In this document: positions 14,064-31,288 of the stretch, piece after piece
Layout: each line of letters begins with the position of its first letter
Numbering within the stretch: position 1 is the stretch's first letter
Virus record (IMG/VR): IMGVR_UViG_3300005549_000001
Length of the DNA: 64,000 bases
Strand: one strand, 5' to 3'
From: an uncultured virus (IMG/VR IMGVR_UViG_3300005549_000001)
Taxonomy: Duplodnaviria > Heunggongvirae > Uroviricota > Caudoviricetes
Program-made: the position numbers and the translations under genes
The notes under the pieces: generated by a model
Told to the model about the DNA's origin: nothing
The model's database searches: none
The model's input: the letters and a program-made list of their open reading frames with translations, nothing else

Positions 14064-14065
14064 GC

Positions 14066-14611: not shown

Positions 14612-14614
14612 CTT

Positions 14615-15232: not shown

Positions 15233-15465
15233 AGCTGCCTCGTCAATTCCCACCTCGAGCCGGTCCAGCTCCACAGGCGAAAGATCCTGCCGTACGCGAA
15301 GTAGCGCACCTTCACGGCGCCGAGCTCGGTGAGCGCGTCGCGCTCGTCGAGCACGAGCACCTCACGCTGCCCGTAGATCTGGCGCCACGAGCCGGTGAAC
15401 TCCCACACGTCGACGTAGCGGTACTGACGACCGACGCCGAAGAATCCTTCCTGCGAGAGCATCAC
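15229..15465 (-). CDS. Small aromatic-rich protein
   Basis: Coupled on both sides; internal repeat VWEFTGSW / LWSWTGSRW. Confidence 0.5.
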   Translation of the reverse strand: MMLSQEGFFGVGRQYRYVDVWEFTGSWRQIYGQREVLVLDERDALTELGAVKVRYFAYGRIFRLWSWTGSRWELTRQL

Positions 15466-16178: not shown

Positions 16179-17215
16179 GAGAGGAAGTAGTAGGCTGCCG
16201 CCGCAACAACCGCGGCTCCGATGAGAATCGGCGCAGCAGAAGACTTCTTCGCCTGCGCAATAGGCGTGGGACGCGGCGGCGGCAGCTCCCCCGGGGGAAT
16301 CTCTGCAGGCGGAGTCACCGGCGGCACGCTCGGCTGGCAGTCAGGAGTAGCCTCCCAATCACCGAGCTCGGCGGGCGCCTTGAGCGCCGTCCAGCAGACG
16401 TAGTTCGCGGCGCGGTTGTCGCCGGTCCAGCCGCGTTCACGACAGTACTTGACAATGCCGCGTTGCTCGGGCGTGAGGCACGCGGGCGGCGCGGGGACCG
16501 TGGCCGGCGGATCGCAGAGGGGCAGGTCGAAGTAGCCAGCCTCGAGCGTCTGCCGACAGAAGTTTCGAAGTGCGAGAATGTCGACGCCCTGCACGAGCTC
16601 GGGTGGACCGATGTAGTCGCCCCTCGCGTCGAAGTAGAAGCAGGGCTGCGCGGCGATCACCTGCTGCGGGCTCAGGCACTCGCCCGGCGCGGGCGGTGGT
16701 ATCGGCGCTGCGACGGGCTCGCACTGCTTTGTCGTGCGGTTCCTCACCTGTCCCGGCGGGCAATTCGCCCAGCAAATTCCGGTATCGGTATCACGCACTG
16801 TATTCGGAGGGCACACATAGGGTACGCATCCCGTACCTGCTCCTGCACCCAAGATCTGATCGGGAGGGCACACGCGTCCTGCGGCGCCGACATCTCGGCA
16901 CTTTACGCTCCTCGACGCCGTGTCCCAGTAGGCTTCTTTGCCCGGACCGCAAAGGATATTCGTCTCCTGGAGACACTCTCCAGTGGAGGCAATACGAACG
17001 CTACCCGCAGGGCAGTTCACGGGTACGCAGCCGTTCGGTCCGACCGCCTGCCCCGGGCACTGCCCTATCCTGATTCCCCCGGCCGTGGGTATGTCACGGC
17101 AGCGAATCTCTTGGCGCTGAGGATCCCAAAAGGCCTCGAGGTCGGGACCGCAAGAAGCGTCTTGCCCCAGCGTTCCCCTCTCTCTCGCCGAACCGAGCCA
17201 CTGGATCGCCATCAT
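16175..17215 (-). CDS. Cys-rich repeat membrane protein, WLG-tagged
   Basis: Start 17215 or 17212, MAIQWLGSA..TLGQ; duplicated CGP..EA(F/Y)WD....CRD and CP....R...TG.C units; PILIGAAVVAAAAYYF anchor. Confidence 0.65.
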   Translation of the reverse strand: MMAIQWLGSARERGTLGQDASCGPDLEAFWDPQRQEIRCRDIPTAGGIRIGQCPGQAVGPNGCVPVNCPAGSVRIASTGECLQETNILCGPGKEAYWDTASRSVKCRDVGAAGRVCPPDQILGAGAGTGCVPYVCPPNTVRDTDTGICWANCPPGQVRNRTTKQCEPVAAPIPPPAPGECLSPQQVIAAQPCFYFDARGDYIGPPELVQGVDILALRNFCRQTLEAGYFDLPLCDPPATVPAPPACLTPEQRGIVKYCRERGWTGDNRAANYVCWTALKAPAELGDWEATPDCQPSVPPVTPPAEIPPGELPPPRPTPIAQAKKSSAAPILIGAAVVAAAAYYFLS

Positions 17216-18300
17216 GCCACCTGCGTTACCAAGTAGATGCCGCCGAGCGCGGCTGCGGCGAGCAGGAACAGTCCTCCCGCCCCGATTCCGCCCTTCGAGG
17301 TCGTGGTCGACGCGCCCACCCTGCTCGGAGTGACGCGGTCGGGGCACGTCGTCGGCACCGTCATGCCGCCCGGGCACTCGGGAATATCGAAGGGGCTGCC
17401 TGGCCCCTCCGCCGGTACGCCCTGCACGAGCGTGAGGAAGTAGAGCGCGCCGCACGTGACAGAGTTCCATGTGCCGTCCACGGGGATCGGCACGTAGCCT
17501 CGCGCAGAGAGTTCTCCGTTGATGCGCCGCTGCACCGAGCGCACGGCGTCGCTCACGGCGCCGAACTGGACGACGCACTGCTCGAAGGGGTTTTCCGGGG
17601 GAGCCTGAGGCGGAGGTGGAGTCGGCAGAGGAGCTGCTCCACGGCAGAGACTGTTCAGCTCGGGGTGCGCGAGCACCAAATCGGCGAGCTGCGGGTCGAC
17701 GGTGCCGAGCTCGTTGCGGGCGATTTGGAGCAGCCTGTCGCACGTCGCCTGATCAAGGACACCGTCGTCGCGGACGGTAGGGAGATTGTTTCGCGCGAGC
17801 ACCTCGTTCACGAGCACCTGCATCGTGAAGAGGTCGAGATTGAACACTCCCGGAGTCACGGGCGCGGAGGCCTGGCCGAGTGCGCCGCCCTCTTCAGGAA
17901 CGCCGGCTATCACCTGCGACTGAAAACCCTCTTTCGTCACGACGCCGCACCCCGGAGGCCGACCTACGAACACCTTCGTCGCGACGACGACGCTGCCGCG
18001 CAGCATCCTGAGCTCGAGCCCCTCGCCCGGCTCCTGCACGACCGATACGTTCGAGATGATCTGCTGAAATTTTGCCTCTGCCTGCTGCCGCGTCATGATG
18101 CTTGGTCCCGCGCTCCACGAGACGAGCTCGCGGCAGTCGCGGAGCACGCGCACCAGCACGAACCTGTAGTGCGCCGGAGGCTGACGAAGCAGTGGCACGC
18201 CTGGGATCGAAATATCGAGAGGCACGCCGGGGCGCAGGCCCCTCGGCGACCTGAGCGTCACCTGTCCCACCGTCGCCGCGGAGCCGAGCCACTCGATCAT
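17212..18300 (-). CDS. Membrane protein with two peptidoglycan-binding-like (PG_binding_1) domains, WLG-tagged
   Basis: TGATG-coupled start MIEWLGSA; Q..N..L...DG.....T..AL twice; C-terminal anchor. Confidence 0.65.
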   Translation of the reverse strand: MIEWLGSAATVGQVTLRSPRGLRPGVPLDISIPGVPLLRQPPAHYRFVLVRVLRDCRELVSWSAGPSIMTRQQAEAKFQQIISNVSVVQEPGEGLELRMLRGSVVVATKVFVGRPPGCGVVTKEGFQSQVIAGVPEEGGALGQASAPVTPGVFNLDLFTMQVLVNEVLARNNLPTVRDDGVLDQATCDRLLQIARNELGTVDPQLADLVLAHPELNSLCRGAAPLPTPPPPQAPPENPFEQCVVQFGAVSDAVRSVQRRINGELSARGYVPIPVDGTWNSVTCGALYFLTLVQGVPAEGPGSPFDIPECPGGMTVPTTCPDRVTPSRVGASTTTSKGGIGAGGLFLLAAAALGGIYLVTQVA

Positions 18301-19037
18301 CACGCTACCTGCGTGACGGCGTAAATACCTGCGAGCACGGCGGCCGCGAGCAGCGCGAGACCTCCAGCACCAACTCCGCCGGTCTTCGCGACATTCGTCG
18401 GAGGCGGCGCCGTCCCCGGCTCGACGATGGGCGGCGCGGGCGTCGCGCACTTGTCGCCGACCTTGATCTGCCCGGGCGGGCAGTCGACGGCGCCCTGCGG
18501 GCCGCAGAGCCCCTGCGGCCTGTTCTCCCACTCGGCTCGGTGCTGCTGGCACGTCACGGGCAGCCCCGCGGCATTGACCTGGTTCACGGCCGCGCACGTG
18601 ATGGGACCGAGCTTGCCGTCCTCGGTGATCTCGCAAAGCCCATATCCCGGCGGGTCAGACGCGGCGCGCGCCGCGAGAATGCGCCTGTTGGTGTCGCTTT
18701 GAAGATTTTGCGTCGCCTTGCTGAAGCGAAGCCACGGGTAGGAGACGCCTGAAATCTCCTCTGGCGGGCAGAGGCGCGTGACGCACTCCTCCTCCGTGTA
18801 GCGCTGGTGCAGCGCGCGAATGCAGTCCTCGATGTCCTGCAGGCTCGTCTCGGGAATGAACGCCGCAGTGCAGTCATTTCGCGCGCGCTCGAAGGCGTCG
18901 GCCTGGCAGTCCTTGAAGCCGGGCACGTCCCAGCAGACCCCCGGAATTTGGCCGAGCCTGCCGGTCCTCACGCTGCCGAGCCACTGCACGGGCGCGCCCT
19001 CGGTCCTCGCACTGCCAAGCCATTGAATCTGCGTCAT
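18300..19037 (-). CDS. Cys-rich membrane protein with a PG-binding-like domain and a double WLG tag
   Basis: MTQIQWLGSA...VQWLGSV..RLGQ; LQ..TN...EDGKLGPITCAAV; C-terminal anchor. Confidence 0.65.
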   Translation of the reverse strand: MTQIQWLGSARTEGAPVQWLGSVRTGRLGQIPGVCWDVPGFKDCQADAFERARNDCTAAFIPETSLQDIEDCIRALHQRYTEEECVTRLCPPEEISGVSYPWLRFSKATQNLQSDTNRRILAARAASDPPGYGLCEITEDGKLGPITCAAVNQVNAAGLPVTCQQHRAEWENRPQGLCGPQGAVDCPPGQIKVGDKCATPAPPIVEPGTAPPPTNVAKTGGVGAGGLALLAAAVLAGIYAVTQVA

Positions 19038-19047: not shown

Positions 19048-19890
19048 TCAGAGGGGCGCCCCGCACTCGGGCAGGAGCTCGACCGTCATCGCCCCCGCGA
19101 CGCGGCCATAGATCGCTTGCTGAAACGTCGCGAGGAAGCGGTCCTCGGGCCGGAGCGCGCCCGGGTCCGCCGGCGTCGTGACCAGTCGCCCCGTTGGATT
19201 GGGTTGATGCACGCTCGCGTAGAACACGAGGTTGAAGGGACCGCGGATGATCTGGTGCAGCCGCCAGTCCGTGTTGTCCCACGGAAAGCGGATGTCACGC
19301 CACGTGTCGAGCCACTCGAGAGGGGCGCCCGGAGGAATGCCCGCGTTCGGCGCCACATAAGGGACAAGCGGCGGCATGTAGAGCAGCGCCGAGTCGAGCG
19401 CGCCGGAGAGGTTCGGGTCGGTGCCGGGCTGCTGCGCGGGATCGACAACGAGCGCGGTCATGACGCTGCGCTGCAGGCGCAGATGCCACGAGATGTTGCC
19501 ATCGGAAAACGACCAGAACGGCGAGGTCACCTCGAGCTCGTTTGCGGTGAAGTTGCAGTCTTGATCCACTTGCTCGCAGCGAATCGTCACCGCCTGCCTG
19601 AGACCGTGCAAAATGATGCCGCACTTGTCCGGCACCTGGACTCCGACGAGCCGGATCAAGTAGCGGTTGCTCTGCGACGTCGTCGGCGCCGCTGGCACGC
19701 GCACGCCGGTCGACGCCATGTCGCCGACGTACGGGCTTGAGCCGATGCCCGCCTTGTCTGGGTCGAAGGAGCTCGACGAAATCTCGACGATGCTCCTGCA
19801 GCGCCAGCGCGGGTCGCGCGCCGACAGGAACGACGAGTGCGGCGACCCGTTCTCGCTAGCCGAGCCGACTCTGTGAGCGGTGGCTCCCAT
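19048..19890 (-). CDS. Putative capsid-associated beta-rich protein
   Basis: Third gene of the Cys/beta-rich block; no TM. Confidence 0.5.
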   Translation of the reverse strand: MGATAHRVGSASENGSPHSSFLSARDPRWRCRSIVEISSSSFDPDKAGIGSSPYVGDMASTGVRVPAAPTTSQSNRYLIRLVGVQVPDKCGIILHGLRQAVTIRCEQVDQDCNFTANELEVTSPFWSFSDGNISWHLRLQRSVMTALVVDPAQQPGTDPNLSGALDSALLYMPPLVPYVAPNAGIPPGAPLEWLDTWRDIRFPWDNTDWRLHQIIRGPFNLVFYASVHQPNPTGRLVTTPADPGALRPEDRFLATFQQAIYGRVAGAMTVELLPECGAPL

Positions 19891-19899
19891 GGGCCACCG

Positions 19900-20613
19900 T
19901 CACACGCAGCATCCGATGCCCCGCGCGGCGAGGGCCGCGATGGCGATCTCGAGCGAGATGTCATAGCGGCGGGGCAGCGTGATGGCCCAGATGACGATGC
20001 AGACCTCGTAGGGGATTTCGTCAGCGGCGAGCGCCCGCCTGAGGGTGAAGTCGGCCTCGATCGTGGCCGCGCACCCGAGCACGAAGCCGATGGGGCACAC
20101 GCACTCGAACACGAGCTCGATGGTCTCGAGCGGCGTCGGCTCCGAAGCGATCACGTAGTCCGTGAAGGACTTGACCGTCAGGCGAAAGTCGACGTTCGGG
20201 TTCAGGCGGTTGTTGACGTCCGACTGGGCCTTGAAAATCGAACCGGCGAAGGCGTTCGGCCGCCGCACGGTGTAGGTGATCTTCCTGACCCAGAGGTCGC
20301 GCGTGATGAGGCTGCCGAACTGCGCCGGAATCGTCTTCGGCTCGGTGCTCGTGAAGCTCGCGCAGATCGGCACCGACTTGAGCATGAAGGCCGGGCAGGT
20401 ATCCGCGAACAGCGCGAGCGCGTCGATGTCGGCGAAGCCGTCGTGCATGCCCACGCCCACATCGCGCCTGGGCGACGGGGGCGGGAGCAGTGCAGCAGCC
20501 AAGCGCGGGTCGTGCGCCGCAACCTGCCCGAGGGTGACACCCCCGGGCAGGATGAAGTTCGGACCCATGGGCTCGATGAGCCCGGCGGGCTTCTCTTTCG
20601 ACGAGTCGGTCAT
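19900..20613 (-). CDS. Candidate second (small) jelly-roll capsid protein
   Basis: Alternating beta-strand pattern (LWVRKITYTV, VDFRLTV, FVL...TIEADFTL, YEVCIVIWAI); directly after the large candidate. The fold is inferred only. Confidence 0.4.
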   Translation of the reverse strand: MTDSSKEKPAGLIEPMGPNFILPGGVTLGQVAAHDPRLAAALLPPPSPRRDVGVGMHDGFADIDALALFADTCPAFMLKSVPICASFTSTEPKTIPAQFGSLITRDLWVRKITYTVRRPNAFAGSIFKAQSDVNNRLNPNVDFRLTVKSFTDYVIASEPTPLETIELVFECVCPIGFVLGCAATIEADFTLRRALAADEIPYEVCIVIWAITLPRRYDISLEIAIAALAARGIGCCV

Positions 20614-20624
20614 TCAGGGTCCGA

Positions 20625-21917
20625 TCAGCGCTCGGCCCCCGGCAGGCCGGCGAGGTTGCCGCTGGCCAAGCCGAGGAGCGTCTTCAGGCGCGGGTCGTCG
20701 GCGCTGTAGTCGGTGCGTGCCTTGCCTGCGAGGCTCTGCACCCAGGGAGTGCCGGCGATGGTGTTGAGGATCGGCACGCGGTCGATGACGTACTGGTGGA
20801 GCAGGTCCACGCAGAACGCGTACGACACGCGGAAGCCCATCAGCCGGATGCCGATGGTGACCTTGCCGCCCGGCCAGTGCCCGGCACCGATACCGACGCC
20901 GCCCGTCGGCGACGCCGACGTGAAGCACTCGCTCGGGCTGATCATGCCGCACTCCTGAGCGCCGAGCGCCTTGGAGCCCGGCACGGCCGCCGCGCGCATC
21001 TGGTTCTTGAACACCTCGCTGTTGGTGCCGAGCAGATCGAACTCGACGCCGAGAGAGGTGACGGCGGGCACGAGGATGAGAGGGTTCTTGAAGCGGAACA
21101 GCTTCGGCTGCCGGCCCGAGAACATCGTGTGGCCCCACGTCACGGCCGCGCTCGGGGGCGGCGCGTCGATGGACGCGCAGACTCCGTTGCAGTCGGTGGT
21201 CAGCAGGGTGTTGACCGGCAAGAACTGGCAGTCCAGGCCGTTGTCGCGGGCGTGCTGGTTCGTCTCGCGGATCTTCGGCATCGTGCCGATGCACGAGTCG
21301 CCCGCGCCGCGGAAGCTCGGAGCAATCTCGCACATGCCGATGTCGCTGGCCGGCAGGTCCACGACGAGGCACTCGTCGTTGATGAGGATCTGCAGGTTGT
21401 ACGTGCGGAAGAACGCCTCGATGAACTCCCACGTGGGACCGCCCCAGCTCATGACCGCGGGCACCTGACCCGGCGAAGCGAGCGCCCCGCCGTCGCAGCC
21501 CGAGCCCATGACCGCCGGAGGAGCGACCGCCGTGCCACCATCGGGGCAGTCGACGAGCACGCCGCTCTGGCAGAAATTCTGGCCCTCGCCGACGGCCACG
21601 ATGCACATGCCGCAGATGATCGTCGGAGAGATCGTCGTCAGCAGTGAGAGGTTCGTCGACACGTTGCAGACGCCGTCCTGGGTCGGCGGGTTGAACTTGA
21701 ACAGGCCGGTCTCGAACCGCGAGAAGAAGGAGTCGAGCTGCGCGTCGGTGACGGGCAGGCAGAGCGTCTCCTCGTAGAACACGAGGCTCGGAAGCAGGTT
21801 GGACGCAACCTGGTTCAGTTGCCCGAGCCCGACGCCCTGACCGAGCATCGCGAAGTCGTGGGGCATCGTGCGGATGTTGCGCCGCTTGGGCGCCGATCGA
21901 GTGATGTTCCTTGCCAT
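20625..21917 (-). CDS. Candidate major capsid protein (jelly-roll type)
   Basis: Strong AGGAG RBS, strongly GC3-biased codons, 430 aa. Basic N-terminal arm ending MLGQGVGLGQ. LF...TNL...ICGMCIV and FKNPLIL.P...VEFDL...TIGIRLMG strand patterns. The fold is inferred only. Confidence 0.5.
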   Translation of the reverse strand: MARNITRSAPKRRNIRTMPHDFAMLGQGVGLGQLNQVASNLLPSLVFYEETLCLPVTDAQLDSFFSRFETGLFKFNPPTQDGVCNVSTNLSLLTTISPTIICGMCIVAVGEGQNFCQSGVLVDCPDGGTAVAPPAVMGSGCDGGALASPGQVPAVMSWGGPTWEFIEAFFRTYNLQILINDECLVVDLPASDIGMCEIAPSFRGAGDSCIGTMPKIRETNQHARDNGLDCQFLPVNTLLTTDCNGVCASIDAPPPSAAVTWGHTMFSGRQPKLFRFKNPLILVPAVTSLGVEFDLLGTNSEVFKNQMRAAAVPGSKALGAQECGMISPSECFTSASPTGGVGIGAGHWPGGKVTIGIRLMGFRVSYAFCVDLLHQYVIDRVPILNTIAGTPWVQSLAGKARTDYSADDPRLKTLLGLASGNLAGLPGAER

Positions 21918-22001
21918 TTTCTCTGTTCTCCTGGTTGCCCCGCTCCACATAGGACCCCGGGGCGTTGAAAATTACGGATTAAAAACTCTGACTTCTTCTC
22001 T

Positions 22002-23780
22002 TCACTCCTGCTCGGGAGCCTCGGTCAAACCGAAGGGCATCTCCCTTTCCCCGTTGGGCGTGCCGTAGATGAGCCCTGGTCCCGAGGGGGCGACGACGCC
22101 GGGCGTGAGCGGGACACAGTTTCCGGTCAGCGGATCGCGCACCATGCCGGGCAGACAGCCAGGCAAGCAGCGGCCCGAGATCGGATCGGCGTAGTGCCCA
22201 GGTGGGCACGCGCCGGGCGCCATGGGCGCGCTCTCGAGTGCCCGACAGAAGGCGTACGGGAGCACGACCCTGTTGCCGACCACCCAGAACCCCGGCTCAT
22301 TCAGTGCGTTGACCTGCGCGACGTCGATGCCGTACTGCGCGGCCATGACGGCGAGGTCGTCGCCGGCCTGGACCACGTACTCGCACCGCCGCGCAACGAG
22401 ATCGTCGGTGCAGTCACCGCACATCACGAGGTCCGGGCAGTGATCCCAGCACCCGCGCTCACCACCGCACGAAGGGCATACGCCAACGCGCCCAGTCGGT
22501 ACGATCGTCGCGGGTTGACCAACCCGCCCGTTCGCCTCAGCCGACTGGGCCCGAGCTTTTCCCGCGGGTACTCCGTTGCCCTTGCCGTTACCGGCGGGGG
22601 CACCGCGACCGAGCGTGTACGCCGGGCCCGTGGTCGGGACCGGAGCCACGCCGACGATCTGCGGCGGGTCCTGCTGGTTGAGGTTCAGGTTCACCGTCGT
22701 CGCCCAGTTCTCGAAGAGCCCGTCGACGACCTCCTGCACCGTCTTCTGCTCCATCGGGTACATCCGGTTCGCGAAGGTGGCCTCCGAGCCCGACTGCACC
22801 TTGAACACCATCGGCATCGCGTACCAGTTGAGCAAAAGCTTCGTCAGGTTCGCGAAGAAGCCGACCGCGGTACCTCCGACGAGGAACGGCAGGATGCTCC
22901 TGCCGCGCACGGCGTAGGCGAGTGCGACGCCGGCAACGCCGCCGGCAGCCTGCGCGCCGAGGCGCCAGGCATCGGGACGACGATTTTGAGCCGCCGCCGC
23001 GTTCGCGCCGTAGTACGGGTTCTTGCCGTTCGTGGGCTTGCGGGTCGCAACGAAGCGGTCCGCCATGTCCGCGAGGGTGAGGCCGATGCCAACGCCGAGG
23101 CCCGCCATGCCGAAGGCGCGGATGGCCGAGACGCTGAAGGTCTGGTTCTCGAGCAGCTCACCGTAGGGATTCTCGAGCAGAGCGCGATCGCGGAAGGTCA
23201 TGCTGCCCGCGTTCTCGCGCATGATCGAATTCTCCGAGTAGCGGCGGCGCGTCGTCCTGCGCCGACGACGCCGACGAGGATTCTCCTGCAGCGCAGCAGC
23301 ACGCCGGCGACGACGCCGACGGGGGCGAGGGGTCTCCTCGATCACGATCGGCTGCCGCGACTGCGGCACCCTCACGAGGCGGACGCCTCCGCGACGAGAG
23401 CTCACGGCGCCTGTGCGACGACGAGCTCGCCTGCGAGTCCGACGAACAGCGCGACGACGGCGACGACGCGGTGCCGCAGCGGCACGAGCTCGACGCCTAC
23501 GACGCCGACGAGGAGCCGCAGCCACTGCTACGCGGCGACGACGCCGACGAGTCTTCCTCGCACGACGACCTCCGCGCTTGGTGCGACGCTTGGCGCGTGC
23601 CTTGCGCAGGTTACGAAGTGACGCTGCCCTCTGCTTGCGTGTTTGAGCCATTCCTTTACCTCTCGGATTTTCGAGCAAGGGTTCTGCGCGCAGTGCGGGA
23701 GCCTGCTCGACTTCCTCGCGCTCGCGCGCGTGATCGTCGATTTCCTTCTTTACGCGCAGCCATGCTTCCGTCGGCTTCAT
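22002..23780 (-). CDS. Protamine-like Arg-rich core protein with TM segments, LysM domain and Cys-rich tail
   Basis: Poly-Arg tracts; ENP repeats; Gly/Ala hydrophobic helices; YVVQAGDDLAVMAAQYGIDVAQVNALN...GNRVVLP (LysM). Alternative start at 23651. Confidence 0.75.
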   Translation of the reverse strand: MKPTEAWLRVKKEIDDHAREREEVEQAPALRAEPLLENPRGKGMAQTRKQRAASLRNLRKARAKRRTKRGGRRARKTRRRRRRVAVAAAPRRRRRRRARAAAAPRRRRRRAVRRTRRRARRRTGAVSSRRGGVRLVRVPQSRQPIVIEETPRPRRRRRRRAAALQENPRRRRRRRTTRRRYSENSIMRENAGSMTFRDRALLENPYGELLENQTFSVSAIRAFGMAGLGVGIGLTLADMADRFVATRKPTNGKNPYYGANAAAAQNRRPDAWRLGAQAAGGVAGVALAYAVRGRSILPFLVGGTAVGFFANLTKLLLNWYAMPMVFKVQSGSEATFANRMYPMEQKTVQEVVDGLFENWATTVNLNLNQQDPPQIVGVAPVPTTGPAYTLGRGAPAGNGKGNGVPAGKARAQSAEANGRVGQPATIVPTGRVGVCPSCGGERGCWDHCPDLVMCGDCTDDLVARRCEYVVQAGDDLAVMAAQYGIDVAQVNALNEPGFWVVGNRVVLPYAFCRALESAPMAPGACPPGHYADPISGRCLPGCLPGMVRDPLTGNCVPLTPGVVAPSGPGLIYGTPNGEREMPFGLTEAPEQE

Positions 23781-23827
23781 CCCAGCACTCTGCGTCGGAC
23801 AGTCGCATGCGCGCTCAACGCTGATAA

Positions 23828-24433
23828 CTATGGACGAACAAATCCCCTGCTGTCAATCACGCAACCTTCGGGTAGCGGCAGTCGCCACGCGAGAGGTCGC
23901 GTCGTCGACATCAACTCGACGGGCGGATCGTAGCGATGCTCGAACAGCGTCGCGAAGCCGAAGCGACGGTAGCGGATGAACCGGATGAGCGCTTTCGGAG
24001 CCCAATCTCCGCCAGGAAGCGTGACGGAGCCTCCGCGAATAGCCGCCTCGGGACCGAAGTAGTTCTTCGCCACGCGCAGGTCTGCGCGATGTATATCCGA
24101 CTCAGTTTGCAGTCTTCCTCGACTCCAACGCAGCACATATATGTCGCACTTGGACAAGAGCCTGCCCGCGGCGTCGTGCACGATGACGTACGAGGGCGGT
24201 AGGCGAATATCGCTCGGCATTTGCCGAGGATCTAGCTTGTGCTCGCCCACGCGCTCGGCCTGCTCGGTCGACACAAAGCTCACCTGATCACCGCGCACGA
24301 GGAAGTGAGCGAGCTCGCACGCCTGCTCGTCGCAGACCTCCACTTCGGCGACGCGCGGCTCACCGCCGGCGGTCGGGTCGATGTCCGACACCGCCGCCGG
24401 ATTCTCGCACCCGCATTCCTCTTCGTCGCTCAT
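23828..24433 (-). CDS. Hypothetical virion protein (ENP motif)
   Basis: ATGA-coupled start MSDEEECGCENP. Confidence 0.55.
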   Translation of the reverse strand: MSDEEECGCENPAAVSDIDPTAGGEPRVAEVEVCDEQACELAHFLVRGDQVSFVSTEQAERVGEHKLDPRQMPSDIRLPPSYVIVHDAAGRLLSKCDIYVLRWSRGRLQTESDIHRADLRVAKNYFGPEAAIRGGSVTLPGGDWAPKALIRFIRYRRFGFATLFEHRYDPPVELMSTTRPLAWRLPLPEGCVIDSRGFVRP

Positions 24434-24843
24434 CGCCGCGGGCACCCGATGACTGCCTCGACGCGGTCGCTGAGAGAAATCGTGCGGAAGCTGCCGCGCG
24501 TGAAGTGCGAAGGTGATCGCTGACGCAAACGGTACTTGTTCGCGGTCGTGTCGACCTTGTGCGCGACGTAGCCGTTGCGACGCGCCCACGCAATGGCGCT
24601 CTCGCGCGTGAACCTGTTGCGATCGAAGAGCAGCGTCTGCACCTGCGTGCCGCGCGCGCAGCGCTGGTTATCGAGAAGGCGCCGCCGCGTGTCGCCCTTT
24701 TCTGATCCGAGCACGGCGCCAATGCCGCCGCCGACGATCGCGCCGGGCAGCCCGAGCAGGAGACCGCCGAGCAAGATGCCGACGCCTCCGCCAATCGCCA
24801 TGTTCGCTCCGCGCGATGGATTCTCTTCGTACTTCTTGGGCAT
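24430..24843 (-). CDS. Glycine-zipper membrane protein with a basic C-terminal domain
   Basis: MPKKYEENP; IGGGVGILLGGLLLGLPGAIVGGGIGAVLG. Confidence 0.65.
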   Translation of the reverse strand: MPKKYEENPSRGANMAIGGGVGILLGGLLLGLPGAIVGGGIGAVLGSEKGDTRRRLLDNQRCARGTQVQTLLFDRNRFTRESAIAWARRNGYVAHKVDTTANKYRLRQRSPSHFTRGSFRTISLSDRVEAVIGCPRR

Positions 24844-24847
24844 CGTT

Positions 24848-25963
24848 TTACCTCTGGGCCTGCGCCCTGCGCGTGACAACGAAGTCGCCGCGCTCGTTGG
24901 TCACGCCGTAGGCGTAGATCTCATCATTCTCATTGGCTCCAAAGGAAAGCGCAGCGCGCGCCATCTCATCGTACGTGCGCGAGCTGTCGACCGCCTCGCG
25001 ACCCCGCCAGTACGGCGAGGCGCGGAGCTCCTCGAATCGCCAGTGCCCGCCGGGCCACGAGACTGTGCCGGCGTAGTCGTCCTCTCGGTCGCGATACTTG
25101 ATGTTCACCCTGACGTCGCCCGAGTGACGCACGGGATTCTCGAGCAGACGCGCGGGCGCGAGTGCTCCACCTCCACCGCGCCGCGAGAGCAGCTGCGCGA
25201 CGATGTAGAGAGCCGCGAGCCCGAGCGCGATGAAGCCTACAGTGCGGATGGTCTGCGGGATCTCTGACTTGCCCTTCGTCTGCTCTATCGCGCGCGCCTT
25301 GTGAATTTGAGCAGCGCCCTCGTAAATTGAATCGTTGAGCGCTTTGACCTGTTCAGGACTTGCGCCCGCCTCTAGCTGCTTGGTCGTCTCGATCTTCATC
25401 GTCTCGACCGTCTTCTGTTCAGCGACCTTCTCCACGGTCTCGCAGACCTCGGCGACTGCGAAGTAAGCTCCGATAATCGCGGCAACCACGATGACGCCGA
25501 CGACGATCGCGGGCAGCGCACTTACCGTGCCGGTGATCCTGATCGGCTGGTTCGTCGCGTTCTCAATCTCGACGGGGCGGCCGCCGCGAATCTCAATGCG
25601 CGTCGCGTCGCCTTCGAGTCGCTCGAGCCCGAGCGCGCCCTGCGCGTCGGTGCCGAGCTTGCGCTTGCCTGCGATCGCATCGTCAGCGAAGCGCGTCAGC
25701 GTCGCGACCATCGAGCCGACCTCGAGAAACTGCTGGTCGAGGTCGGCACCCCACGCACCGAGCGGCGACTGGCCCTCGCCGGACTGCTCGGCGAAGAAGG
25801 GCAGTCCGAGCCTCTCGCGCACGCGCTTCAGCGTCGCTCGCGCGTCGCTCGCGCGCTGGAAGGCTACGTTCACGTCGTCGCGCAGCGCGCGCACGTAAGC
25901 TTCCCACGCCGCCGCGGTCGCTGCGGTGTCAGTAGCTTGACCCAACCACGTCACTGCGGACAT
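24848..25963 (-). CDS. Two-TM virion membrane protein carrying both WLG and ENP motifs
   Basis: GGAGG RBS, MSAVTWLGQ; two hydrophobic helices; LLENPVR after the second. Confidence 0.7.
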   Translation of the reverse strand: MSAVTWLGQATDTAATAAAWEAYVRALRDDVNVAFQRASDARATLKRVRERLGLPFFAEQSGEGQSPLGAWGADLDQQFLEVGSMVATLTRFADDAIAGKRKLGTDAQGALGLERLEGDATRIEIRGGRPVEIENATNQPIRITGTVSALPAIVVGVIVVAAIIGAYFAVAEVCETVEKVAEQKTVETMKIETTKQLEAGASPEQVKALNDSIYEGAAQIHKARAIEQTKGKSEIPQTIRTVGFIALGLAALYIVAQLLSRRGGGGALAPARLLENPVRHSGDVRVNIKYRDREDDYAGTVSWPGGHWRFEELRASPYWRGREAVDSSRTYDEMARAALSFGANENDEIYAYGVTNERGDFVVTRRAQAQR

Positions 25964-26141
25964 CTCGCCTCCGTAGGATTGCATAAATTAGGTAGGTAGC
26001 GTTAACGAGCACCCCGAGCAGCAGAATCTTCTCGCTCCGGCTCCAGTGATCATCCTTGGCTTGCGCCTCACTGAGGATCGGCAGCGGCGCACCATTGTCG
26101 CCGTCCTGGCCGAGCCAGACTACGCGGCGAGCAGTAGCCAT
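25929..26141 (-). CDS. Small membrane protein, WLG-tagged
   Basis: RVVWLGQ; ILLLGVLVNATYLIYAIL followed by RRR. Confidence 0.6.
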   Translation of the reverse strand: MATARRVVWLGQDGDNGAPLPILSEAQAKDDHWSRSEKILLLGVLVNATYLIYAILRRRDVRSDVVGSSY

Positions 26142-26827
26142 GCGACTCCCACCGCAACTGCGGCAACGATCACTACCGGCAGCGCAGATGGCTTCTTTGA
26201 TGACGGGGGCAGCTTCTGCTGCGCGATAATTTCAGAGACGCGCGCGCTCTCCGCAGTCGCAAGTTTTTTCAGGTAGGTGTCAAGCCCGTCCTCGCTGAAG
26301 TACGGACGCCAGGGTCCGCGCTCGGCTTCCGTGGGCCCGCGGCCCGCGGCGAGAGTAGCCCCCGGAACGCCCCAGCGCTCGAGTGCCTTTGTCTCGACGA
26401 GGATCTCCTCGTTCGGAGGGGTTCGCACGCCCAGCCGCTGACTCGCGAGCCGAATCGCTGCTTTTCGCGTTCGTTGGTAAAATACGTGGTCGTACTGCGG
26501 CGCAACGAACTGCTCGCCCGCAAAGAATCCTTCGAAGATGTCGTAGATGGCCCCGCCGAGGTACTTGCCGATGGCCTCGCCGATGTCGGAGCAGATGCCG
26601 AGCGCCGACGCAATTGCAGTTACCCCTCCCGTCTCTGCGGCTAGCGCGACGCACGTGGCGTCTCCTGCGGCACTGCCCGCAGCCTTGCCGATATTCTGCA
26701 CGTCGTCGCGCTTGGGCGGCCAGTCGGCCTTCAGCGCCTCGTTGTATGCCGCGTCAGCTGCAGCATCTTCCGGGCTCTTCGGCTCCTCCTGACCGAGCCA
26801 CTTCGGACGACCGAGCCAGGTAATCAT
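26120..26827 (-). CDS. Membrane protein with a double WLG tag
   Basis: ATGA-coupled MITWLGRPKWLGQ; C-terminal LPVVIVAAVAVGVAWLLLAA. Confidence 0.65.
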   Translation of the reverse strand: MITWLGRPKWLGQEEPKSPEDAAADAAYNEALKADWPPKRDDVQNIGKAAGSAAGDATCVALAAETGGVTAIASALGICSDIGEAIGKYLGGAIYDIFEGFFAGEQFVAPQYDHVFYQRTRKAAIRLASQRLGVRTPPNEEILVETKALERWGVPGATLAAGRGPTEAERGPWRPYFSEDGLDTYLKKLATAESARVSEIIAQQKLPPSSKKPSALPVVIVAAVAVGVAWLLLAA

Positions 26828-27549
26828 CCTCGCCTCCCGAGCCACCAGATCTCGCGCAGGCGGTGCGGATGGTCGACATCTGCGCGCCTGAAGCCGTCGA
26901 CGCCGACGAACATGCCCTGCTGGACGAAGCCATTTTGATCCGGATCAAAACTTGTCGGATTCGTCAGACACGCGGTCTCGTCGCAGACGACCTTCACGAC
27001 CGGAACGGACAAGAGTCTCTCGCGCGTGAATGGCTCGCACTTGCCGAGCGGAAAATCGTACGACGGGTCAGCGTAGAGCCACTCGCCCTTGATGCGGCAC
27101 GCGCAGAGTACGTGCTGAATAGCCCTCGCAGATCCGTAAGCGTGGCCGACGATCATCGTGTGAATGCCCACCGAGAGAAAGCTCGCGGCGAGCAGAACGG
27201 CCATGTCGTCGCAGTCACCCGAGTTGAAGCACGGCCCGTGCTTGTCGTCCTTGCTGCACGCTAGCAGGTGCGCTCCCTTGATGTACTCGGTGCCGACGGG
27301 GTCAGGTACCCACGTCTTTGTCTGCTGCACGGCGCGGAGCAAGATCTCGGCCCGCGCTCGGTCTCCCTTGACGACCTGACCACCGAGGCGCGCGCCGTGG
27401 ATGTGCTCCCCAGCCCACTCCTTGACGCGCGGGTGGTTGCCTCCCTGCGCGGACCGCTTGGCGACCTCCTCGAGCGAGCTCCTGACTCCTTCTTCGCCGA
27501 AGGGGTGGGCCCGCTTCTCTACTTTAGGGTTCCACTCGCCGGGGGGCAC
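26824..27549 (-). CDS. Transglutaminase-like (papain-fold) cysteine protease or acyltransferase
   Basis: GDCDD (Cys), QHV (His), WLYADPS (Asp) triad in canonical order. Confidence 0.85.
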   Translation of the reverse strand: MPPGEWNPKVEKRAHPFGEEGVRSSLEEVAKRSAQGGNHPRVKEWAGEHIHGARLGGQVVKGDRARAEILLRAVQQTKTWVPDPVGTEYIKGAHLLACSKDDKHGPCFNSGDCDDMAVLLAASFLSVGIHTMIVGHAYGSARAIQHVLCACRIKGEWLYADPSYDFPLGKCEPFTRERLLSVPVVKVVCDETACLTNPTSFDPDQNGFVQQGMFVGVDGFRRADVDHPHRLREIWWLGRRG

Positions 27550-27554
27550 GCACG

Positions 27555-29033
27555 CTAGTCTGCCACTTCGGCGGGCGACTCCACAACCTCGGCCTCAAGG
27601 ACCGGCAAGTCGACGGGAGGGTCGATGGGCGCCGGTGGCGGAGTTTCCTGCGGGGCTACGCGCGGTTTGCTGAACTTCTCCCACGGGTGTTCGGGCGGCG
27701 ATTGCTCGGGTTGCGGCGCGACAGGTACCGAAGGCGGCTGCCAATTCGGAGTCTGGTGCACGTGAGGCTGTTGCTGCTGCATCTGTGGCTGTGGCGCTTC
27801 GTGACCCTGCAGCGTTTTCTGCTGTGAGGCGCGGTTGGAGATAGCCTCGGCCTGCTGCATCAAGTGCACCTGCTCGCGCATGACGCGCATGCGGTCTTCA
27901 CTGATGTCGCTGAACAGCTTCTTGACCTTGCCGAGCAAACCGTCGAAGAGGCCCTCGTACTTGTCCAAGTTCATGAGCAGCGGCGCGGTGACTTCACCGT
28001 CGGCGTTCGCGATCATGCGCACGGGGCCGAAGTCCTTCACCTTCGTAGGGAAATCGGGATCACTCTGCGGCGGAGGCGGCGTCTCGGGTTCGGAGTCTCC
28101 TCCGCCGCCAAATGTGTTCACGAGACTGTCTCGTATCGAATTTACCTGCGTCAGCATCGCGCTCATCTCGTTGAGCTGCTCGATGGGCCCCTTGGGAGGA
28201 GGCGGCGGAGGCGGGGGCGGCATCTGAACCTGCGGCGCGGCGGTGGGTTGCGCGTAGTACTGCTGTGCGGTGAGCGCGGCATTTCGCGCGTTCGCGTCGT
28301 TCAGCTGCGTAATGAGCGTGGTCAGGAGCGCGCCAATGGTCGGATCGAGCCCGGGCGGCAGCTGGATCGGAGGCGGCGCCGGCATAGGCGGTGGCGCCTG
28401 CTGCTGCTGAGGCTGCTGCTGAGGCTGCTGCTGGATATACACGGGAGGCGGAGCGTAACCCTGCATGGGCGGGACGCCGTACGGCGGAGGCATCTGCGGC
28501 GAGTACGGAGCGGGTCCGTAGGGAGCTGGTGGCTGTTGTCCGTGTCCGTATCGTCGCATCTCGTCCTCGCGAAGTTGGATGTTACCGCTGGCGAACGGGT
28601 AGCGGCCGCCGTGCACCTCCCACCGGAACACTGCTCGCTCGCCGTTCCACAGGTCCTGGACGATGTGCGACCGCATGAGCTCGTAAGTCCTGATCTGCGA
28701 CAGGTGCTTCTCTCCGAAGCTGTGGTCGACCTCGGGCTCGAGCTGGTAGATGCGCACCCGCGCCTCGGGGTGGATGTCGAACATCGCGTTGTATTTGACC
28801 GGGTCCGGAGCGTTGAACGGTACGCCTTTTTCTCCTGAGCTCTTGCGGGAAACCGCCTTCTGATATTCGGCTGCGTATCGCGAGCCCTCGGAGTCGAGGG
28901 GCATGTGCTTCGCCTCCTCTGCGGAGATCTCGGCGTCGTTTAAGGGAGCGCCGAAAGCGTCGACCGGCGTACCCTCGACGAAGAGCGGCCCCTCGTCTTC
29001 GGCACTTCCATTTCGCTTCCTTTTTCTCGCCAT
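27555..29033 (-). CDS. Pro/Gln-rich low-complexity protein
   Basis: Globular N-terminus, PY/PPP/QQQ tracts, short coiled coils. Confidence 0.6.
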   Translation of the reverse strand: MARKRKRNGSAEDEGPLFVEGTPVDAFGAPLNDAEISAEEAKHMPLDSEGSRYAAEYQKAVSRKSSGEKGVPFNAPDPVKYNAMFDIHPEARVRIYQLEPEVDHSFGEKHLSQIRTYELMRSHIVQDLWNGERAVFRWEVHGGRYPFASGNIQLREDEMRRYGHGQQPPAPYGPAPYSPQMPPPYGVPPMQGYAPPPVYIQQQPQQQPQQQQAPPPMPAPPPIQLPPGLDPTIGALLTTLITQLNDANARNAALTAQQYYAQPTAAPQVQMPPPPPPPPPKGPIEQLNEMSAMLTQVNSIRDSLVNTFGGGGDSEPETPPPPQSDPDFPTKVKDFGPVRMIANADGEVTAPLLMNLDKYEGLFDGLLGKVKKLFSDISEDRMRVMREQVHLMQQAEAISNRASQQKTLQGHEAPQPQMQQQQPHVHQTPNWQPPSVPVAPQPEQSPPEHPWEKFSKPRVAPQETPPPAPIDPPVDLPVLEAEVVESPAEVAD

Positions 29034-29041: not shown

Positions 29042-29374
29042 CTACGTAACCACGGGCTCGGCCGCAGTCACGACGGCCGGCACGAGCAAGTTCAACCTCG
29101 CGCGCCAGAGCTGTCGCGTCGCGTCCATGATGGCGTCGGTGTTCGGAAAGAGCTCGTCGCCCTGCGCGTTCGTCTGCAGCACCACGGTGCGCTCGAGGAA
29201 CGGCGCCTCAGCACACTGGGGATCCACAACGACGACGGTCACGTCGCTCACGACGTCCATGCCGAGCAAGTCGAGCTCGCCGGTGTTGAGTACGATGGCC
29301 TGGACTCGGGCCAGGAGCGCCGATGCCCGAGCGAGCCCTACTCGAATCGCGTAAGCCAGTGTGACGGTTGCCAT
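29042..29374 (-). CDS. Hypothetical protein
   Basis: Packed ORF with AAGGAG RBS. Confidence 0.5.
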   Translation of the reverse strand: MATVTLAYAIRVGLARASALLARVQAIVLNTGELDLLGMDVVSDVTVVVVDPQCAEAPFLERTVVLQTNAQGDELFPNTDAIMDATRQLWRARLNLLVPAVVTAAEPVVT

Positions 29375-29590
29375 TTACTTCTTCTCCTTGCGCCGCCGCC
29401 CGTTAGAGTGCAAGAGCGGCTCCTCTCCATGCATTCGCGCGATGGCGAGCGAAACAACCGAAGTCTGCGGAATGTGCAGCGCTTCCGACAGCTCGGTCAT
29501 CTTCTGAATTATCTCGCGGTCCAAGTGAAATTGTCGGCGGAGTCCGGGTCGACCCTTAGGTCGGCCATTCCTAGCGGGCGTCGGGTCCAT
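29375..29590 (-). CDS. Ribbon-helix-helix DNA-binding protein
   Basis: RRQFHLDREIIQKMTELSEALHIPQTSVVSLAI fits an RHH strand-helix-helix. Confidence 0.55.
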   Translation of the reverse strand: MDPTPARNGRPKGRPGLRRQFHLDREIIQKMTELSEALHIPQTSVVSLAIARMHGEEPLLHSNGRRRKEKK

Positions 29591-30044
29591 TAGGTGCTCC
29601 AAGTGCGGGGGCGTCGGGAGTCGCTTCGTCTTCTTCGATCTTCTCGACGAAGAAGTCGTGAATGATCGAGTGCGCCTCCTTGATCACTACGATCTCTTCA
29701 GTGAACACGACCATCGACGCAAAAACGCGGCGGCACACGACATTTTTCGCTGCCTGCATCTCGTTCAAGAGCCTCTGGGGGTCGGGCTTGATCTGCGACT
29801 GCTTGCTGACGAAGGCGCTGATGTCGCGGTAGTACTGAAACAGCGCCGCGCAGAGATTCTCAGGTAGAAGCCAGATCTCGTACTGCGCCGCCGTCTTCTC
29901 AGTGGTCTGCTCGTCGAGCTTCGAGAGTTCCTCGGGACGATCGATGATGAGGCCTATCGGGCAGCCGTCCTCCTTGAACCACTTGCTGCCGACGCTGAGC
30001 GACTTGCCAGACACGAGCTCGAGCCGGGTAATGAAGGTCGGCAT
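29571..30044 (-). CDS. Hypothetical protein, first gene of the structural operon
   Basis: ORF track; preceded by a promoter-like sequence. Confidence 0.55.
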   Translation of the reverse strand: MPTFITRLELVSGKSLSVGSKWFKEDGCPIGLIIDRPEELSKLDEQTTEKTAAQYEIWLLPENLCAALFQYYRDISAFVSKQSQIKPDPQRLLNEMQAAKNVVCRRVFASMVVFTEEIVVIKEAHSIIHDFFVEKIEEDEATPDAPALGAPNGPDAR

Positions 30045-30052
30045 GCAGAGAA

Positions 30053-30082
30053 AGGCTACTCTGCAACCCCTAAAAGAGTCAA
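30053..30082 (-). promoter_or_regulatory. Sigma70-like promoter for the structural operon
   Basis: Minus-strand TTGACT-N18-TAGCCT, ending about 8 nt before ATG 30044. Confidence 0.4.
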
Positions 30083-30083
30083 G

Positions 30084-30449
30084 TTAGCGTCGGATACGCA
30101 GCGTAACTTGGTCCTGCTGCTCTTCGAACGGCGGCTTCAAGTCCCGCACGGTGTCCTGACCACTGGGCGGCGGCTTGAGGTTCAAGAAGACGAATTTGCG
30201 GTTCAAGGCCTCCTTCTCGGGCACGGGCGGCGCGGCGATCTTCTGAGTACGGCGAGTGCGCTCGACGAGCTTTCGGTAGAGCGTCATGCGCACCCTCGGC
30301 GTCTTCTCGCGAGGGTTGCGCGTCACCTCGTCGAAGCTGTTGACGAATCGGTCAAAAGCTCGGCGCTCGGACTCGGACGCAACCCACACGCCGAGCAAAT
30401 AGAAGAGCGCCGGCGCGACGACGATCAGAAGTATGAACCACTCACTCAC
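30084..30449 (-). CDS. Small N-terminal TM protein
   Basis: WFILLIVVAPALFYLLGVWV. Confidence 0.5.
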   Translation of the reverse strand: MSEWFILLIVVAPALFYLLGVWVASESERRAFDRFVNSFDEVTRNPREKTPRVRMTLYRKLVERTRRTQKIAAPPVPEKEALNRKFVFLNLKPPPSGQDTVRDLKPPFEEQQDQVTLRIRR

Positions 30450-30698
30450 GCACTTGGTGATCGCACTGGACCGCGAACGCGCAAGGCGACCTAGTAGCAG
30501 GGATACTCACACGGAAAATTCCCTAGCCTTCGTCGAGGTTTGTCTGCGAGTCATCCTGCACCGTGGCCGGCCGCCGCGCTTCGCACTCCTCTTCCGCTCG
30601 CATTCGCGCGAGCACATCGTCGACCAGGTCGGCGTCGTACTTCAAGGCAAGAAGCTTCTTCCGGAGTTCTTCGAAGCCGTCCACGCTAAACTCCGATC

Positions 30699-30926
30699 AT
30701 GACTGCTGAGGAAGATCTCGTCCAGCACGCGGAGCGCGAGGTTATAGACGCGGCAGTCGAGTGGGCCAGGGAACAGCAGCGGCAGCCGCCGGTGACGCAG
30801 TCGCCATCAGCTTCCCGCCTGCGCACCGCCTGCTACATGCTCCACCGCGCGCGCACCATCACGGGCAAGGTGCGGATGGAGGACGTCGAGCGGGCAATGG
30901 CCGAGGACGAAAAGAAGAAGCGCTAG
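30699..30926 (+). CDS. Hypothetical protein
   Basis: Plus-strand ORF filling the gap between minus-strand operons; convergent stop overlap. Confidence 0.45.
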   Translation: MTAEEDLVQHAEREVIDAAVEWAREQQRQPPVTQSPSASRLRTACYMLHRARTITGKVRMEDVERAMAEDEKKKR

Positions 30927-31288
30927 GCCGCGATGCCGAGCTCGGCGAGCGTCTGTTCGGGCGGCTCCTCGCCGAGGAAGGTGAGGTCGCGCACGAGGAC
31001 GCCGTGGGCTGCGGCGTGATCGCTCTCTCGCTTCATGCCGCTCGAGACGCGGCCTCCGACGAGCCAGATCTCGTCGCAGCGCTCGACGGTCGCGCAGTCG
31101 ACGGTGAGGCCGAGCTCGCGGTTTTCCTGCGTCTCGCTGAGCTCCTGGGAGAGCACGATCCAGGTCGCGACCGGCGCGAAGCCCTGGCGGGCCGCCCACG
31201 CGCACCAGCGCGCGGCGCGGCGGCGGTTGAGCCCCATCTCCTGCTGCGTCGGGGCGGCGAGCGCGTGGGCAATGTAGACGACCTTCAT
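30923..31288 (-). CDS. Nucleoside deoxyribosyltransferase-like (DUF4406-type) protein
   Basis: VVYIAH...CDEIWLVGGRVSSGMKRE. Confidence 0.7.
   Translation of the reverse strand: MKVVYIAHALAAPTQQEMGLNRRRAARWCAWAARQGFAPVATWIVLSQELSETQENRELGLTVDCATVERCDEIWLVGGRVSSGMKRESDHAAAHGVLVRDLTFLGEEPPEQTLAELGIAA

Follow-up and report, generated by a model that had tools for sequence, protein, structure and literature searches.

Known single jelly-roll viruses with an internal membrane make up a small group whose genomes measure 17-44 kb and whose habitats are mostly hot or salty. SPV1, the portoglobovirus, has a genome of about 20 kb and an inner membrane surrounding a nucleoprotein coil. SPV1 and FLiP are without a packaging ATPase, and helvetiaviruses are proposed descendants of a portoglobovirus-like ancestor (PMC8812541); the Odin group, also without a packaging ATPase, has the smallest genomes of its group (PMC5894146). 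In sphaerolipoviruses, two capsid proteins are conserved together with a packaging ATPase (PMC5332951), and Helvetiavirae are now the realm Singelaviria (PMC12451622). SSIP-1 is icosahedral, 100 nm across and T=49, with a 44-kb genome (PMC6260650) and two major capsid proteins (PMC6356626). Here we describe a 64,000-nucleotide stretch from an uncultured virus filed under Caudoviricetes (IMG/VR record IMGVR_UViG_3300005549_000001), hereafter the window, and the virion module that it carries. No lineage of this kind is mentioned in the accessible text of three sources that describe the single jelly-roll group as small (PMC10848233; 10.1101/2025.02.15.638363; 10.64898/2026.04.06.716669), and a literature search, outside which subscription papers and supplements mostly lay, found no account of 60-105 kb single jelly-roll bacterial viruses without a packaging ATPase.

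The window has 64% GC and densely packed genes, nearly all on the minus strand. A preliminary description made from the letters alone had read it as a tailless, membrane-containing virion module attached to a large tailed-phage-like replication region. The best reading of our results is a Singelaviria-like, SSIP-1-related lineage. We hold it to be very probable that this is a tailless jelly-roll virus and, with less assurance, probable that condensed DNA, membrane and jelly-roll shell of this tailless bacterial double-stranded DNA (dsDNA) virus of about 84 kb co-assemble without a motor. The results obtained with computational tools are two predicted jelly-roll folds, the gene order, the lack of detectable tailed-phage, FtsK or A32 genes in closed relatives, and a basic protein and an enzyme present in every genome compared.

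Three adjacent genes encode candidate capsid proteins

The capsid region consists of three genes:

20625..21917, minus strand: candidate major capsid protein, 430 amino acids (aa), 16 Cys (AlphaFold2, Foldseek, VIA)
19900..20613, minus strand: 237-aa protein, 8 Cys, candidate second (small) capsid protein (gene position)
19048..19890, minus strand: 280-aa single jelly-roll protein, 5 Cys, candidate penton (vertex) protein (predicted fold, VIA)

As first described, the three genes are adjacent; their GC content at third codon positions is 0.86-0.92. At E<=0.05 none of the three proteins has a match in Pfam or PHROGs, and sequence searches with the capsid families gave nothing useful in the PDB or the phage collection and one weak Pfam match among 116 members. 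The family of the 430-aa protein has 15 close members and falls into 103 clusters at 50% identity.

The AlphaFold2 model of the 430-aa protein, built from 116 sequences (pLDDT 88.8, pTM 0.87), contains one jelly-roll barrel (about residues 44-364) that is interrupted by long insertions and followed by four C-terminal helices. Its strands (44-54, 83-88, 99-123, 173-179, 183-189, 274-282, 289-295 and 345-364) fit a single eight-stranded barrel. Foldseek placed an SPV1 capsid chain, 6oj0_Z, first in the PDB (E 1.9e-3). First in BFVD was I1ZBH9 (E 4.9e-4, probability 1.0, TMt 0.43), which we take to be SSIP-1 gp46, though ORF35 would also fit its 211 aa; the rows below these matches are mostly jelly-roll capsids. 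In VIA, the matches tied at the top include HHIV-2, HCIV-1, SPV1, P23-77 VP16/VP17 and single barrels of double jelly-roll proteins. The model aligns as a single barrel, with about 105-125 residues spread across 41-364; lone barrels of double jelly-roll proteins (8rbs, 5oac, 1w8x) span its residues 37-373, which leaves room for one barrel only, and the model is not of the double jelly-roll type that defines Varidnaviria such as PRD1, PM2 and STIV. The predicted structure thus supports the single jelly-roll fold class well, and major capsid protein is the most likely role of this protein.

The model of the 280-aa protein (104 sequences, pLDDT 91.5) is likewise a single jelly roll, so that the jelly rolls suspected in the preliminary description are predicted for two of the three proteins. 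Among 48,161 chains its sole match above Z 8 was 6h82_b (Z 8.7; next match Z 6.6), the product of HHIV-2 gene 22, i.e., the penton VP9 (PMC6414509). By its model, the 280-aa protein looks like a penton rather than a second major capsid protein, and would therefore sit at the vertices. It had no match in the ESM Atlas. The 237-aa family has 57 homologues, and its gene lies between the capsid and penton genes in all 10 genomes compared (see below), which makes this protein a candidate that is probably the partner capsid protein. It had no sequence match in the PDB, and its best ESM Atlas match (0.80) is at lead level only.

The module is conserved in closed genomes that lack tailed-phage head genes

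A profile of the penton protein retrieved 11 viral contigs. The module is present in five records that have direct terminal repeats of 90-127 bp, namely G004 (73.6 kb), G006 (79.6 kb), G007 (105.5 kb), G009 (60.0 kb) and G010 (78.6 kb), and CheckV rates four of these closed records as 100% complete. We compared 10 genomes: the five closed ones, the linear G001, G002, G005 and G008, and the window. G011 and G012, which are fragments like G008, were left out, as was G003, which ends before the module. With G004 and G005 sharing about 95% identity and G001 closely resembling the window, the 10 represent about eight distinct genomes. In every one, five genes are clustered (the three capsid-region genes and those for a cysteine enzyme and a 201-aa protein), and the order of the module genes is constant even though capsid identity drops to 23-28%. 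The genomes probably represent an undescribed soil lineage of tailless bacterial dsDNA viruses of 60-105 kb.

We scanned the 83 proteins of the window against Pfam and PHROGs. No match to a large terminase, portal, HK97 capsid, major tail, tail tube or tape-measure protein was found among them, which bears out the initial impression of a structural region without recognisable genes of these kinds. Window matches with head or tail labels are single shared domains (M23, helix-turn-helix (HTH), glycine zipper, fibre-type); the M23 domain matches tape-measure families, the glycine zipper weakly matches an internal virion protein family (E 0.011), and 148-1458 matches phrog_10356, a 'virion structural protein'. 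The product of 57057-57554 matched the terminase small subunit family phrog_57 (E 3e-5) and was rejected as an HTH domain ahead of a T5orf172 nuclease.

An ordinary member of the Caudoviricetes, with genes for head, portal and terminase that lie outside the sequence read or have diverged too far for detection, would explain the tailed-phage-like replication region, whose PolA is closest to a Caudoviricetes record (31% identity). It would also explain the fibre and transglycosylase domains of the relatives, which partially match tail fibre, baseplate and head-closure families by single domains. The closed genomes already largely refute it. In six-frame searches, for which every family profile gave a signal in control genomes, the five closed genomes scored 0/5 for Terminase_6N (PF03237), Terminase_3 (PF04466), TerL_ATPase (PF03354), Phage_portal (PF04860) and Phage_capsid (PF05065). 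PHROGs searches with their 213 proteins of >=170 aa (of 619 called genes) matched no head, portal or tail-tube family over its full length; a NUDIX domain of G004 matches part of a 'portal'-labelled family, which we treat as a mislabelling. The closed genomes contain no long helical tape-measure gene, and the conserved module proteins are predicted to fold as jelly rolls, not as HK97. The HK97-fold capsid, large terminase and portal that define Caudoviricetes were thus detected neither in the window scan nor in the five closed relatives, and we consider such a phage highly improbable.

A basic membrane protein and a cysteine enzyme occur in all genomes

Upstream of the capsid gene, the module encodes further conserved proteins:

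22002..23651, minus strand: core/membrane protein, 549 aa (basic region and helical domain in 10/10 genomes)
23828..24433, minus strand: 201-aa conserved protein of no known family, with a C-terminal CxxDxRGFVxP (10/10 genomes)
26824..27549, minus strand: transglutaminase-like cysteine enzyme, C113-H146-D161 (triad alignment; homologue in 10/10 genomes)
27555..29033, minus strand: 492-aa Pro/Gln-rich acidic protein, scaffold-like, near the module start (profile, 9/10 genomes)
29042..29374, minus strand: 110-aa conserved protein at the module start (profile, 10/10 genomes)

The gene for the 549-aa protein has a purine-rich ribosome site at its start at window position 23651. Residues 1-140 of the protein contain 62 Arg and 5 Lys and are protamine-like; ENP motifs, hydrophobic helices and a Cys/Pro-rich tail follow. 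In all 10 genomes the frame directly upstream of the capsid gene carries a basic stretch with a net charge of +18 to +37 per 60 residues (counted on stop-to-stop frames), after which come an ENP or SNP motif and hydrophobic helices that are conserved as a set. In G007 the basic stretch is rich in Lys and Ala and resembles histone H1.

The cysteine enzyme matches Pfam Transglut_core with E 0.008, below the cut-off; a search of 50,697 phage records gave a single match, SSIP-1 gp34 (E 5e-3). Judging by its aligned triad, it is a candidate maturation protease or cross-linker. Four of the 10 genomes carry inteins, both full-length and mini, directly before the catalytic Cys (G001:16567-18321, G002:7840-8991, G007:78839-80977 and G009:37489-40053), and the position of these insertions suggests that the enzyme is conserved and active. 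The G001 intein ends in Gln instead of Asn.

No packaging ATPase is detected in the module

The lack of an FtsK/HerA packaging ATPase in the window, noted at the outset, was confirmed with Pfam, PHROGs and the Walker A pattern, and the closed genomes likewise scored 0/5 for FtsK_SpoIIIE (PF01580) and 0/5 for Pox_A32 (PF04665), both of which again gave a signal in control genomes. The Walker A pattern picks up both reference packaging ATPases (P23-77 and HHIV-2). Within the window, the only plausible ATPase with a canonical Walker A motif is the primase-helicase; in the closed genomes the matches are helicases, Sak4, kinases and primase partners, none of them conserved in the module. No gene common to all 10 genomes contains the motif, and by Walker A pattern and PHROGs the closed G004, which belongs to the window's subgroup, has no credible P-loop or ATPase gene.

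The DUF87/HerA profile (PF01935) matched one of the five closed genomes, G010, where 33057-34838 encodes a HerA/DUF87-like ATPase of 593 aa whose C-terminus is probably a winged helix. This ATPase would fit a tailless jelly-roll membrane virus that pumps its DNA into a procapsid, by an unrecognised motor (such as the 492- or 201-aa protein), by host FtsK or by an ATPase encoded outside the sequence read. A motor is also what the packaging ATPase conserved in Halopanivirales would lead one to expect (PMC5332951), the motor-free jelly-roll viruses known are small (PMC5894146, PMC8812541), and two universal proteins without a predicted fold leave room for a hidden motor. We nevertheless find this explanation unlikely. 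The G010 gene has ThyX on one side and Sak4/SSB genes on the other, and the remaining four closed genomes lack it; the universal genes are free of Walker A motifs, as is G004 of a credible P-loop gene; and the universal protamine-like protein offers another route to a packed genome. The FtsK/HerA gap is probably a true absence across the lineage.

Comparison with described jelly-roll viruses

The closest resemblances are to SSIP-1. SSIP-1 also has a transglutaminase-like virion protein (gp34) with a Gln/Pro-rich gene before it, ENP motifs in gp41, gp43 and gp44, and, immediately ahead of three neighbouring capsid-like genes (gp45-47), a hydrophobic protein with ENP, together with many C-terminally anchored proteins. 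Among 15 SSIP-1 proteins scanned, none matched FtsK/HerA in Pfam. When the 430-aa profile was compared with 57 proteins, SSIP-1 gp45, gp46 and gp47 ranked as the top three (0, 1 and 6 of 300 shuffles scored as high), with E-values that fall short of significance. The SSIP-1 virion ATPase gp40 (L010 24775-25737) is of the AAA_25/KaiC, RecA type and matches no FtsK/HerA profile, so SSIP-1 may itself be without a canonical packaging motor. In contrast to SSIP-1, the soil lineage has genomes 1.4-2.4 times larger and a capsid protein about twice as long, and SSIP-1 is from a hypersaline habitat.

With Halopanivirales/Singelaviria (P23-77, HHIV-2, HCIV-1) the lineage shares capsid-type proteins of the single jelly-roll kind, many membrane proteins and wall hydrolases, and its penton-like protein is closest to HHIV-2 VP9. 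Of the features that define Halopanivirales, a single jelly-roll capsid protein (as fold class only) and a single jelly-roll penton were found, whereas no FtsK/HerA packaging ATPase was detected, the HerA-like gene of G010 lying in the replication region. Because this absence is probably real across the lineage, it is not an ordinary member of Halopanivirales. It differs further in having no sequence similarity to VP16/VP17 or VP4/VP7, in genomes of 60-105 kb against 17.0 kb and 30.6 kb for the Halopanivirales references, and in its own PolA and primase-helicase or Rep, its universal cysteine enzyme and its protamine-like protein. Portogloboviridae (SPV1) resemble the lineage in the single jelly roll and the lack of a packaging ATPase, a likeness in working only: the host is probably bacterial rather than archaeal, the genome is several times larger, three capsid-region genes are conserved, and the 430- and 237-aa profiles found no SPV1 chain among PDB sequences at E<=10. 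The Odin group and FLiP share a jelly-roll capsid without an ATPase, but theirs is a double jelly roll. The particle works like a Singelaviria or portoglobovirus one, yet its lack of the ATPase places it outside Halopanivirales.

Several results weigh against motor-free assembly in a jelly-roll capsid. For the 430-aa model no Foldseek PDB match reached E<=0.001, and VIA gave Z scores of only 4-5 (best 5.2), with viral jelly rolls tied with cellular beta-sandwiches; these weak, tied scores leave the fold class well supported and kinship to any specific family, Halopanivirales included, unsupported. The 280-aa model superimposes on 6h82_b with a root-mean-square deviation of 7.9 over 122 aligned residues. 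Profile-profile comparisons found no similarity among the 430-, 237- and 280-aa families or between them and the P23-77/HHIV-2 capsid proteins (VP16/VP17, VP4/VP7); the 237-aa family in particular has no profile similarity to the 430-aa family. A protamine-like protein is missing from SSIP-1, where net charge peaks at +17 per 60 aa, and SSIP-1 does have the RecA/KaiC-type virion ATPase gp40, which the lineage lacks. As for the motor, the Walker A pattern misses the window's own superfamily-2 (SF2) helicase, single-sequence ATPase searches are insensitive (with the P23-77 enzyme as query, that of HHIV-2 reaches only E 0.52), and the G010 ATPase also matches phrog_2666, labelled 'terminase large subunit', a label that may be misleading here. 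Finally, CheckV rates G007 as 64% complete despite its terminal repeats, and about 18 kb of the window's roughly 84-kb genome lies outside the sequence read.

The weak structural scores of the 430-aa protein, together with the many membrane proteins, the missing motor and a condensed core, could also be accommodated by a particle that is enveloped, pleomorphic or vesicle-like and holds a nucleoprotein core, with the jelly-roll proteins as its spikes or surface proteins. An icosahedral capsid is the better fit to the penton-like best match and to three adjacent soluble genes kept in 10/10 genomes, and the three SSIP-1 proteins that lead the 430-aa ranking come from an icosahedral, T=49 virion (PMC6260650). 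We therefore judge a pleomorphic particle improbable.

Membrane proteins, probable entry enzymes and the spike region

The remainder of the module encodes membrane, entry and surface proteins:

24430..26827, minus strand: four membrane proteins (137, 371, 70 and 235 aa) between the protease and core genes, three with N-terminal WLG and two with ENP
12967..19037, minus strand: block of C-terminally anchored proteins, including CAP-domain, M23 and glucosaminidase-like proteins; six begin with xWLG
148..12963, mixed strands: variable spike/decoration region with repeat-rich fibre-like proteins, YadA-head-like repeats and an HNH-like gene, common to G001 and G003
4228-4842: amidase, in the spike region
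5054-6763, plus strand: methyltransferase-glycosyltransferase-TPR fusion, in the spike region

A 19-residue hydropathy scan found 11 proteins with a clear hydrophobic anchor between 8.9 and 26.8 kb; the M23 protein, missed by the scan, is the twelfth. The more than 10 transmembrane proteins counted earlier therefore stand, and the 12 anchored proteins are, from their sequences, consistent with an internal virion membrane. Membrane-anchored wall hydrolases, reported before as 'several', number two: the M23 peptidase (E 3e-18) has an anchor, as has the glucosaminidase-like protein (E 0.005, below the cut-off). A third hydrolase, an Amidase_2 protein (E 3e-20), is soluble. The anchored enzymes of 12967..19037 are probable entry enzymes on the internal membrane.

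Nine membrane proteins at window positions 12967-26827 have an xWLG N-terminus. In six of them the start overlaps the stop codon just upstream; the motif is therefore no artefact of start choice. In 34 module proteins we counted 6 ENP and 13 WLG motifs, compared with about one each in shuffles (maximum 5 in 300). WLG is limited to the window's subgroup (G001, G002, G004 and G005, not G006-G010) and is possibly a sorting or processing signal.

When the entry block (window 12500-18300) is compared with L004, L001 and L006, identity forms a mosaic: a strain that is near-identical elsewhere (99%) diverges here, and a relative with 79% capsid identity is 93-98% identical over parts. This pattern points to recent exchange of the block. 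One gene in it (14615-15232) encodes a membrane-anchored protein composed largely of Pro/Trp repeats (WPxPPP-like). The minus-strand spike region contains a plus-strand island (4916-10997). Besides the methyltransferase-glycosyltransferase-TPR fusion, the island holds an HNH-like gene that G003 lacks and encodes a protein of 163 aa (phrog_5417) and a C-terminally anchored repeat protein of 700 aa. A large sugar-modification cluster at the equivalent place in G004 suggests that the virions are glycosylated.

Genome size, linkage and replication region

Capsid-region proteins identical to those of the window occur on contigs of 84,315 and 84,324 bases, which puts the genome at about 84 kb and agrees with the unusually large size, over 64 kb, proposed before. 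The 84.3-kb contig (with L004) starts near window base 63,590 and extends about 20.7 kb beyond window base 1. That two assemblies of equal length have differing ends suggests a circular or terminally redundant genome. The sequence we read comprises the 64-kb window and 2.1 kb gained by a left-end walk, which reached only the 16.8-kb record G003 and added another fibre-type gene and small membrane proteins; the right-end sequence pattern matched 0 viral contigs.

The replication region is attached to the module as follows:

29375..63830, minus strand: early/replication region with ThyX, PolA, SF2 helicase, PD-(D/E)XK nuclease, primase-helicase and many small genes (Pfam, PHROGs)

A 60.2-kb contig from a metagenome run that may be the window's source covers window positions 24,001-44,000 unbroken and, by its coordinates, extends about 8 kb beyond base 1; three further metagenome runs cover all 30 window bins in pieces. 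G001 (79% capsid identity) and G002 (43%) likewise have the virion and early regions linked in this order. The tailed-phage-like replication region is thus truly joined to the virion module. Of the replication proteins named in the preliminary description, PolA, the helicase (there SNF2, here superfamily 2), the primase, as a primase-helicase, and ThyX were found; the supposed DUF932 protein had no Pfam hit and matched only phrog_1362, of unknown function.

The region is nevertheless not fixed in the lineage. PolA is present in the window, G001, G002 and G007; G009 and G010 have a primase-helicase and Sak4, with no polymerase detected. G004, the closest closed relative, encodes instead a 509-aa protein with three HUH rolling-circle motifs (Pfam E 3.6e-4, below the cut-off), a rolling-circle Rep in place of the PolA set. 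This Rep lies at G004:55254-56783, and no polymerase, primase or helicase was detected in the closed 73.6-kb genome. From its gene content, G004 appears to rely on the HUH rolling-circle Rep, a mode for which 73.6 kb is unusually large. Of the five closed genomes, three encode a tyrosine integrase, which we did not see in the window. The lineage can swap its replication genes; its stable identity is the virion module.

Habitat and host

All 24 listed runs are rhizosphere or soil metagenomes, 11 of them contain at least half of the window's words, and three may be its source; no RNA run is among the runs listed as containing window sequence. The peptidoglycan hydrolases indicate a bacterial host. 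The penton gene is found in five genome-bin contigs from five different phyla, one of which is a binned virus, as it is 100% identical to G004 over 20.8 kb. The capsid profile matches 2/401 Gemmatimonadota and 1/401 Planctomycetota genomes, and a new 54.6-kb bin contig carries virus-type genes with no evident cellular flank. Two Gemmatimonadota genomes contain whole lineage contigs (L074 and G064:C20), likewise with no evident cellular flanks. Binning with Gemmatimonadota is a weak host hint or mis-binning, and we made no host assignment from virus-type contigs that lack evident cellular flanks and are spread over five phyla.

Proposed assembly model and implications

From these results we infer the capsid and penton roles, the internal membrane, motor-free co-assembly, and proteolysis with its sites. 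The virion would be an icosahedral shell of the 430-aa major capsid protein, its probable 237-aa partner and the 280-aa penton, lying over a membrane with virus proteins. The protamine-like protein would condense the genome with no dedicated packaging ATPase, and its hydrophobic helices would tether it and the DNA to the nascent membrane, over which the jelly-roll proteins would close; tied to the membrane in this way, core, membrane and shell would assemble together. The transglutaminase-like enzyme would then probably mature or cross-link the particle, with cuts possibly at ENP or WLG motifs, which is a guess. Entry would proceed via the anchored wall hydrolases and vertex fibres. A basic protein combined with a cysteine protease would have a parallel in the core proteins and maturation protease of adenoviruses. 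SPV1 and FLiP are a precedent for jelly-roll viruses without a motor (PMC8812541).

We give an even chance to the broader proposal that these viruses are an undescribed, class-level soil group of 60-105 kb with single jelly-roll, membrane-lined capsids, no motor, a membrane-tethered protamine- or H1-like protein and a cysteine protease. The capsid clusters number at least 103 at 50% identity, from rhizosphere and soil metagenomes. With capsid genes that match neither Pfam nor PHROGs and replication genes that look tailed-phage-like, such genomes are easily filed as Caudoviricetes.

An ATP motor has been presumed necessary for large phage genomes, and this lineage has closed genomes of 60-105 kb. 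If the broader proposal is true, these viruses would package DNA without a motor in icosahedral particles on the largest scale known in bacterial viruses, the lineage would include the first relatives of SSIP-1, and a conserved virion module would move between rolling-circle and PolA-based replicons. The lineage makes testable the proposed origin of helvetiaviruses from a motor-free, portoglobovirus-like ancestor (PMC8812541), and the basic core protein and the cysteine enzyme would provide two direct handles on motor-free assembly.

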